From NCBI RefSeq assembly GCF_003018255.1, contig NZ_CP027440.1: 64,000 bases of DNA; one strand, given 5' to 3'. Below, piece by piece: positions 47,749-48,419 of this stretch. Made by a program: the position numbers and the translations under genes. The notes beneath the pieces were generated by a model that worked only from the letters and a program-made list of their open reading frames with translations, was not told the origin of the DNA and did not search any database. Each line of letters begins with the position of its first letter. The stretch's first letter is position 1. The stretch is from Escherichia coli. Lineage in GTDB: Bacteria; Pseudomonadota; Gammaproteobacteria; Enterobacterales; Enterobacteriaceae.

Positions 47749-48086
47749 GCGACCTTATTATCCATGCGCGGTATTGTCGCCGTATTCCCGTATTAACAGA
47801 GACCGCAGCCCGACAGGGAGACTCCTCTGCGCGAGTGTGCGGGGATAATCAAAAACGATACACACCGGGGTTTACCGCGTTAACGGAGCGCGGCGTTGTC
47901 CCCTCATGGTCGCTGGTCCGGTGCGATGGTGGAAGAAACCGGACGATGTGTTACCTCGCAAGACCTGTTATGTCATGTGTCTGATTTGTGATTTAAGTCG
48001 GATAATTGTCGTTGCCATTAAGCAGAGGATTGATGGCCGACAGGGTGGCATTGTTAGAATAAGACTTATTCTTATCTGTGCCGGGA

Positions 48087-48419
48087 ATGAAAATGAAAAG
48101 AAATCTTCCGTTAATTATTTTGTTGTCTTCTCTGGTTATGGGCTGTACGCAACATAAAACAGATATGCCCCGACAGTTGGTTAAGGCATTACCACAATAT
48201 CCGGCCTATGCAGCGGCAAATTATATAAAGGGACGGGTTGATGTGAAGTTTGATATTGGTGCTGATGGTACTGTCACCCGAATTGAGTTTATCCGTTCAG
48301 AGCCGCACCATCTGTTTGATGAGCAGGTTGTAAAGGCGATGGCAAAATGGCGATTTGAGAAGGACAGGCCGCGTAAAGGCGTGAAGAAAACGTTTATCTT
48401 TAGTCCTTCTGCACCCTGA
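48087..48419 (+). CDS. lipoprotein with TonB C-terminal-like domain
   Basis: Lipobox LVMGCT; GRVDVKFDIGADGTVTRIEFIRSEPHHLFDEQVVKAMAKWRFEK parallels host Ton[45 protein letters not shown] (16500-17219). Confidence 0.7.
   Translation: MKMKRNLPLIILLSSLVMGCTQHKTDMPRQLVKALPQYPAYAAANYIKGRVDVKFDIGADGTVTRIEFIRSEPHHLFDEQVVKAMAKWRFEKDRPRKGVKKTFIFSPSAP

Follow-up and report, generated by a model that had tools for sequence, protein, structure and literature searches.

Why does a lambda-like prophage of Escherichia coli carry a short lipoprotein built around a TonB C-terminal domain, and what might such a protein do for the element that carries it? The question is raised by a stretch of 64,000 nucleotides from E. 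coli contig NZ_CP027440.1 (assembly GCF_003018255.1), analysed at its full length and referred to below as the window, in which the gene occupies positions 48093 to 48419 on the + strand. An earlier note on this DNA had pointed to the likeness with TonB and proposed that the protein competes for TonB boxes, excludes phages of the T1 and phi80 type together with group B colicins, and affects iron uptake. We confirm the observation, and we find its interpretation partly supported: the structural part holds in a predicted model, the functional part is a reasonable proposal, and the gene proves to be neither a recent copy of host tonB nor new to annotation. The features on which the argument rests are these.

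48093 to 48419, + strand: coding sequence of the TonB_C-domain lipoprotein, 108 aa, stop codon included (open reading frame list and sequence).
48093 to 48146, + strand: lipoprotein signal peptide, MKRNLPLIILLSSLVMG followed by C, read from the sequence; Cys18 is encoded at 48144-48146, with Thr19 at +2.
48168 to 48407, + strand: TonB C-terminal domain (residues 26-105), in alignment with residues 153-232 of E. coli TonB (profile, BLASTP, PDB and model evidence).
16500 to 17219, + strand: host tonB, the full-length energy transducer, outside the prophage and listed for comparison (open reading frame; RefSeq tonB in a syntenic record).

A short prophage protein with a lipoprotein signal

The longest open reading frame of the gene runs on the + strand from a GTG at 48078 to 48419, and two in-frame starts, GTG 48078 and ATG 48087, precede the ATG at 48093. 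We regard 48093, which gives a protein beginning MKRNLPL, as the likely start and the other two as less so, because GGGA lies 8-11 nt upstream of it, the RefSeq start is identical, and the allele of phage 21 starts at the same place. RefSeq entry WP_000828070.1 ("TonB family protein", 108 aa) is the identical protein, with the same coordinates, in a prophage that is 99.9% identical to this one.

The earlier note had described a lipoprotein of about 110 aa with the lipobox LVMGCT, and this description is accurate: the protein has 108 residues and reads LVMG/C18 followed by T19. Judged by eye against the PROSITE PS00013 pattern, its N-terminus comprises a basic segment (MKR), a hydrophobic core (NLPLIILLSSL), and VMG-C18, such that a basic n-region, a hydrophobic core, and a cysteine within the first 15-35 residues are all present. 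Nearly every short homologue, down to those of 35% identity, keeps the cysteine and a Gly or Ala at –1. At +2 the protein has Thr and the homologues Ser or Thr, and none of them carries the Asp that signals inner-membrane retention; by the E. coli sorting rule an outer-membrane lipoprotein is therefore predicted. We thus consider the protein to be probably lipidated at Cys18 and probably sorted to the outer membrane. A tether of roughly eight residues separates Cys18 from the TonB_C domain.

The lipoprotein contains a predicted complete TonB C-terminal domain

To what extent is the remainder of the protein TonB? BLASTP against the host TonB encoded in the same window, the pairwise alignment that had been called for earlier, gave 40% identity over 78 ungapped residues (E 3e-21), matching TonB 153-230. 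The Pfam TonB_C profile (PF03544) matched at E 6.7e-15 and 55.7 bits, above its curated threshold, and TIGR01352 (tonB_Cterm) scored 56.5 bits against a cutoff of 27.1; TonB_C and TonB_2 were the sole Pfam matches of the protein. Sequence matches in the PDB at about 1e-16 were likewise TonB C-terminal domains (1u07, 2gsk, 2grx, and 8rd6).

We built an AlphaFold2 model from 22 sequences and compared it to known structures with Foldseek. Predicted confidence was high across residues 30-105 (predicted local distance difference test, pLDDT, 96-98), and the best structural matches were all TonB C-terminal domains: 1u07_A with E 2e-8; 2gsk_B, the TonB bound to BtuB, with a root-mean-square deviation (rmsd) of 1.0 Å over 79 columns and a TM score of 0.92; and 2grx_C, the TonB bound to FhuA, also with a TM score of 0.92. 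Structure prediction had been named beforehand as the check that could refute the likeness, and it returned the TonB C-terminal fold, with an rmsd to 2gsk_B and 1u07 of 1.0-1.4 Å. Domain III of TolA appeared as a weak, distant match. The model thus shows the alpha/beta fold of TonB's C-terminal domain, a three-stranded sheet with two helices, and we conclude from alignment and model together that the prophage lipoprotein comprises a complete TonB C-terminal domain whose likeness to TonB is far above chance.

Individual positions are retained as well. The YP motif is kept (Y36-P37, equivalent to TonB Y163-P164), as is the aromatic core, in which F53, F75, W86, and F103 correspond to TonB F180, F202, W213, and F230, with F88 replacing Y215. 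The model includes the edge strand beta3 (residues 94-103), which in TonB is the strand that pairs with the TonB box (PMC11658791). The position equivalent to TonB Q160 is occupied by Leu; a Q160L substitution leaves TonB functional and restores activity to TonB-box mutants of FhuA and of colicin M (PMC11658791). The C-terminus is four residues shorter than that of TonB and ends in a Pro-rich tail, and no strand follows beta3 in the model. On these grounds, and in part from the known TonB structures, the pairing edge of beta3 in the lipoprotein should be open.

The protein is nonetheless, by its sequence, not a TonB energy transducer. The NCBIfam TonB equivalogs NF008081-NF008084 scored only 60-73 bits against cutoffs of 265-448 (73 against 315 in the highest-scoring case), and only the last ~80 profile positions matched. 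An 18-residue lipoprotein signal stands in place of the N-terminal inner-membrane anchor, and there is no Pro-rich spacer or rod. Lacking both anchor and rod, the protein could not couple to ExbB-ExbD; this excludes energy transduction and leaves binding as its sole remaining activity.

The gene belongs to a separate lineage and is conserved on mobile elements

The gene itself is not new: thousands of records, that of phage 21 among them, already annotate it by its domain. The phage 21 allele is 71% identical to the lipoprotein of the window and was named "TonB C-terminal domain protein" in a 2022 annotation. Older records label it "partial tonB-like" or "TonB fragment". What our search of the literature did not turn up is this architecture as a distinct lineage on mobile elements. 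Scanning 1.84 billion representative proteins with HMMER, we found many short homologues (105-135 aa) that share the order of signal, lipobox, and TonB_C domain. In a neighbour-joining tree of the domain, the true TonB C-terminal domains form a clade apart from the short lipoproteins in 198 of 200 bootstraps. We conclude from this tree that the prophage gene is a member of an older, separate lineage of short lipoproteins, and we reject a recent capture from host tonB, to which identity is only 40%.

That host tonB lies in the same window, as the earlier note had mentioned, is correct as to its position (16500-17219) and without significance. The prophage is integrated at ompW, between ompW and yciE, 3 kb from tonB, so its use of the ompW attachment site explains the closeness, which we regard as a coincidence.

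By blastn the gene is present in 1615 of 5426 complete E. coli genomes (~30%), of which ~414 carry the window allele and ~1201 the phage 21-type allele. At least 80% of the query was covered in 1611 of the 1615 carriers, with the reading frame intact and the length conserved. E. coli K-12 seems to lack the gene. Between the window and phage 21 alleles the ratio of nonsynonymous to synonymous substitution rates (dN/dS) is 0.12, with the synonymous sites saturated (dS ~1.5). Thus, the comparison of alleles indicates that the gene is under purifying selection and conserved in mobile elements.

Its genomic contexts are consistent with a mobile-element cargo gene, or moron. In the ompW-site prophage it lies between the spanin and lysis genes on one side and the HNH, terminase, and cos region on the other. 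The same slot recurs across unrelated phages: in phage 21 (which also carries bor), in a Klebsiella phage with a homologue of 40% identity and its own lysis-cassette genes upstream, in an HK97-type phage with a homologue of 45% identity, and in a prophage within a 270-kb Salmonella plasmid. Klebsiella conjugative plasmids of the IncFIA/FII type carry the gene by itself, surrounded by non-phage genes. The Klebsiella phage (L003 3880-4345) and the IncFIA/FII plasmid (L019 5915-6345) share the coding sequence, ~85 bp upstream of it, and ~10 bp downstream, and their flanks are unrelated. By this comparison, the unit that moves between phage and plasmid backbones is a compact cassette of the coding sequence with a short 5' region, which argues for a function independent of the phage lytic programme. 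The lysis genes directly upstream in the window are

47042 to 47500, + strand: Rz i-spanin gene with the Rz1 o-spanin gene embedded in it at about 47268-47459 (open reading frames; RefSeq "lysis protein"; same arrangement in phage 21).

A gene for a 231-aa phage antirepressor (46109-46804, + strand) sits between the endolysin gene and Rz inside the lysis cassette, which is an unusual place for it.

Among remote homologues, one lipoprotein TonB_C protein of 35% identity (P0062, L017 5348-5737) is encoded on a contig with a ParM/StbA-type plasmid system, ~1.5 kb from genes for a KAP NTPase, QatB, an unannotated protein, and TatD (L017 7213-11737) that resemble a Qat defence system. Many of the top remote matches (P0034, P0036, P0043, and others) are proteins of 300-1300 aa with 3-5 tandem TonB_C-like stretches.

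The lipoprotein may act as a decoy for TonB boxes

We favour, tentatively and with a little less than even confidence, the view that the lipoprotein blocks the TonB pathway by occupying TonB boxes or the periplasmic face of the transporters. According to this proposal, the signal peptide would be cleaved, Cys18 lipidated, and the protein sorted to the inner leaflet of the outer membrane, where its short tether would hold the domain beside the periplasmic openings of TonB-dependent transporters. There it would occupy the TonB boxes or the periplasmic face of FhuA, FepA, Cir, and BtuB, and perhaps also the TonB boxes that group B colicins bring in. Genuine TonB is scarce and would then be unable to engage the transporters. 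A lysogen or plasmid carrier would come to tolerate phages that depend on TonB (T1, phi80, and relatives) as well as group B colicins and microcins, and would pay for this with some of its siderophore and vitamin B12 uptake.

The support for such a decoy is indirect and comes from four directions: key TonB residues are conserved; a lipid anchor with a short tether would hold the domain against the periplasmic side of the outer membrane; fragments of TonB in the periplasm are reported to inhibit TonB-dependent transport; and in a fusion model the TonB box of FhuA becomes a strand. With respect to the precedents, an overexpressed periplasmic TonB domain inhibits iron import (Howard 2001, as cited in PMC9841981), and a TonB-box pentapeptide lowers both infection by phi80 and killing by colicins (Tuckman and Osburne 1992, as cited in the same paper). 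For the fusion model we placed a Gly-Ser linker of 24 residues between the mature lipoprotein and FhuA residues 1-25 and predicted the structure with AlphaFold2, which is a weak test. In the prediction FhuA D7-T12 form a beta strand (the TonB box being residues 7-11), with a mean pLDDT of 81 in the 10-residue block that contains the TonB box and 36-46 in the linker.

Several points weigh against the decoy. The fusion model was run without a scrambled-peptide control, and the partner strand of the FhuA TonB box was not read from it. Throughout the lipoprotein lineage the position equivalent to TonB R166 is Tyr; in the FhuA-TonB structure R166 reportedly contacts the FhuA plug, so the binding specificity of the lipoprotein may differ from that of TonB. 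Transporters outnumber TonB many-fold, such that a TonB-box decoy would have to be abundant and would tax iron uptake, a demand that makes a TonB-titrating variant worth considering. Our literature search found no functional study or published phenotype of the TonB_C lipoprotein, and PADLOC returned no match to a known defence-system component. Self-exclusion by a carrier that itself enters through a TonB-dependent receptor finds no support either, as the tail-tip protein has a C-terminal end of the type found in lambda J (47% identity) and no cor gene is annotated in the prophage. Expression in the lysogen is presumed, for a gene that shares the orientation of the late operon and whose promoter consensus matches are no better than in shuffled sequence. 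Finally, two distant homologues lie in ordinary chromosomal neighbourhoods, with genes for ahpC, GST, and Usp nearby, and this points to housekeeping as a role of the wider family.

Alternative explanations

The closest rival keeps the domain as a binding module and changes its partner: the lipoprotein could bind the C-terminal domain of host TonB, as a heterodimer, or ExbD, and so detain TonB, of which there are a few hundred molecules, at the outer membrane rather than cover the far more numerous transporters. All core fold residues are kept, TonB C-terminal fragments crystallise as dimers (1u07, the best structural match, has two chains), and a scarce partner would be stoichiometrically cheaper to titrate than the transporters. 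The physiological relevance of TonB C-terminal dimers is, however, disputed, the fusion model favours pairing with the TonB box, and no direct evidence speaks for titration, which we consider unlikely. To the same degree we doubt that the protein is an envelope or virulence lipoprotein unrelated to TonB blocking, whether a tether between peptidoglycan and outer membrane or a serum-resistance or stress factor resembling Bor. Contact with peptidoglycan has been proposed for the TonB/TolA fold, some distant relatives are chromosomal with the ahpC, GST, and Usp neighbours already mentioned, and the gene lies in the post-lysis slot where lambda and phage 21 carry bor; yet phage 21 has both bor and the TonB_C gene, which are hence not alternatives, and a generic tether would have no need of the conserved features that bind the TonB box.

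Two further explanations are much less probable. PHROG 1267, a family of the lysis category labelled "Rz-like spanin", matches the protein at E 1.9e-42 (the other PHROG match is 34172), and a lipoprotein gene that adjoins Rz/Rz1 and is co-oriented with the late operon might be taken for a lysis accessory or spanin-like protein. A complete Rz/Rz1 pair nevertheless stands directly upstream (47042-47500), as it does in phage 21; the predicted structure is globular, with the fold of TonB, and unlike a short, Pro-rich o-spanin; and the gene occurs on IncF plasmids and on chromosomes devoid of lysis genes. We therefore give a lysis function very little credence, and the PHROG label was probably transferred in error from the position of the gene. 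Least credible of all is the reading of the gene as a captured tonB 3' end left over without a function. The older annotation wording ("partial tonB-like", "TonB fragment") speaks for it, as does the restriction of the domain to the last third of TonB. Against it stand the low dN/dS of 0.12 with saturated synonymous change, a lipoprotein signal that was added and then conserved, a conserved length and intact frame in 1611 of 1615 genomes, and the separation of the lineage from true TonBs in 198 of 200 bootstraps.

Comparison with known systems

How would a TonB-box decoy of this kind relate to proteins already described? It resembles the TonB C-terminal domain (TonB 150-239; 1u07, 2gsk, 2grx; PF03544) in its 40% identity, predicted fold, YP motif, aromatic core, and beta3. 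It differs from TonB in having no inner-membrane anchor and no Pro-rich spacer and, probably, an outer-membrane lipid anchor, as well as in being four residues shorter, in the changes of R166 to Tyr and Q160 to Leu, and in belonging to a separate lineage. Periplasmic fragments engineered from TonB inhibit transport through FhuA and FecA (Howard, Herrmann, Stratilo and Braun 2001, as cited in PMC9841981) and are a direct precedent for dominant-negative action. Those fragments are artificial, soluble, overexpressed, and derived from the host's own TonB, whereas the prophage protein is natural, diverged, probably lipid-anchored, and borne by phages and plasmids.

The FhuA superinfection-exclusion lipoproteins, Llp of T5 and Cor of phi80, N15, and HK022, are also small and phage-encoded, and T5 Llp demonstrably acts on a TonB-dependent transporter from the periplasmic side, which makes it a precedent for a prophage lipoprotein that would do the same. 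Neither Llp nor Cor is related to the TonB_C lipoprotein in sequence or fold, as judged by Pfam, PHROG, and structural matches. Both are specific for FhuA and occur alongside FhuA-binding tails, whereas the prophage protein would act on a feature common to all such transporters and is accompanied by a lambda-like tail tip. Lambda Bor/Iss shares with it the character of a lipoprotein moron between the lysis genes and cos/terminase; it is unlike it in its unrelated sequence, in the position of bor on the opposite strand, and in the presence of both genes in phage 21.

If the decoy account is right, some 30% of complete E. coli genomes would be altered in their sensitivity to an entire class of phages and bacteriocins, and iron acquisition and the uptake of siderophore-conjugated antibiotics (of the albomycin and cefiderocol types) would be altered as well. 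The carriers include Shiga-toxin phages, the classical phage 21, and Klebsiella IncF plasmids. Such a decoy would bear on host range in phage therapy, on colicin and microcin ecology in the gut, and on Trojan-horse antibiotics, and it would offer a natural inhibitor for studying the interaction between TonB and its transporters. Should the account be wrong, the gene would still be a very common and conserved mobile-element cargo gene without a known role.

A second lipoprotein with a TolA C-terminal domain

The earlier note had stated that the prophage encodes lipoproteins with the C-terminal domains of both TonB and TolA, and as anatomy this is correct:

37424 to 37852, + strand: gene for a TolA C-terminal-domain lipoprotein (LTTG followed by C), 142 aa (Pfam TolA PF06519, E 1.5e-22; NF007065/TIGR02794).

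This gene lies downstream of Q and two tRNA genes, bears the RefSeq name "tolA", and is found in 894 of the 5426 complete E. coli genomes. Stx phages carry stx just downstream of Q and tRNA genes.

A broader proposal is that mobile elements of Enterobacterales deploy a receptor-independent blocker of Ton import, an outer-membrane-tethered TonB domain, paired here with a TolA-domain lipoprotein that blocks Tol. We hold this to be possible and more speculative than the decoy by itself. Were it true, every TonB-dependent phage, colicin, and microcin would be shut out at once, and the TolA-domain partner would block the Tol pathway used by group A colicins and filamentous phages. The pair would then represent a new class of exclusion factor, directed at the two energy-transduction systems of the host rather than at single receptors, in about a third of E. 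coli genomes.

The upstream region of the gene

A candidate promoter precedes the lipoprotein gene:

48052 to 48060, + strand: TGTTAGAAT, an extended –10-like element and putative promoter of the gene, 31-32 nt upstream of the start.

The –10-like element is conserved as TGTCAGAAT in phage 21, and GATAAT is found at the same distance in the Klebsiella allele. A strict sigma-70 scan found nothing on the + strand in the window, and a terminator scan found no terminator flanking the gene. Overlapping the candidate –10 region is a perfect 8-1-8 palindrome, AGAATAAG-A-CTTATTCT (48056-48072), the right arm of which is absent from the phage 21 allele. We rejected a Fur box at this palindrome: the best match reaches 12 of 19 positions of the 19-bp consensus, and at least 12 are reached in 50 of 182 equal-sized chunks of the window, which places it at background. 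A conserved regulatory RNA or upstream element was likewise rejected, as Rfam matched nothing in 47400-48900 and phage 21 is no more similar upstream (72% identity) than in the coding sequence (72.5%).

Other cargo of the prophage

The prophage is rich in exclusion and addiction cargo. By synteny it also carries dicB, hokD, and a RelE/ParE pair (L011 23772-23960; L001 3101-3256 and 3359-4041). DicB is reported to protect against phage infection by inhibiting inner-membrane receptor proteins (PMC6832061). An OmpC-like porin gene (63235-64000, + strand; RefSeq "ompC" in the syntenic record) lies between the tail genes and the gene for minor tail protein L and runs off the end of the window; together with the TolA-like and TonB-like genes it is the third envelope-altering cargo gene in one prophage. 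The tRNA gene at 36984-37059 (+ strand), which is followed by tRNA-Arg (TCG), is called tRNA-Met (CAT) by ARAGORN and tRNA-Ile by RefSeq in the syntenic record; it is probably a CAT-anticodon tRNA-Ile2 that is read after lysidine modification.

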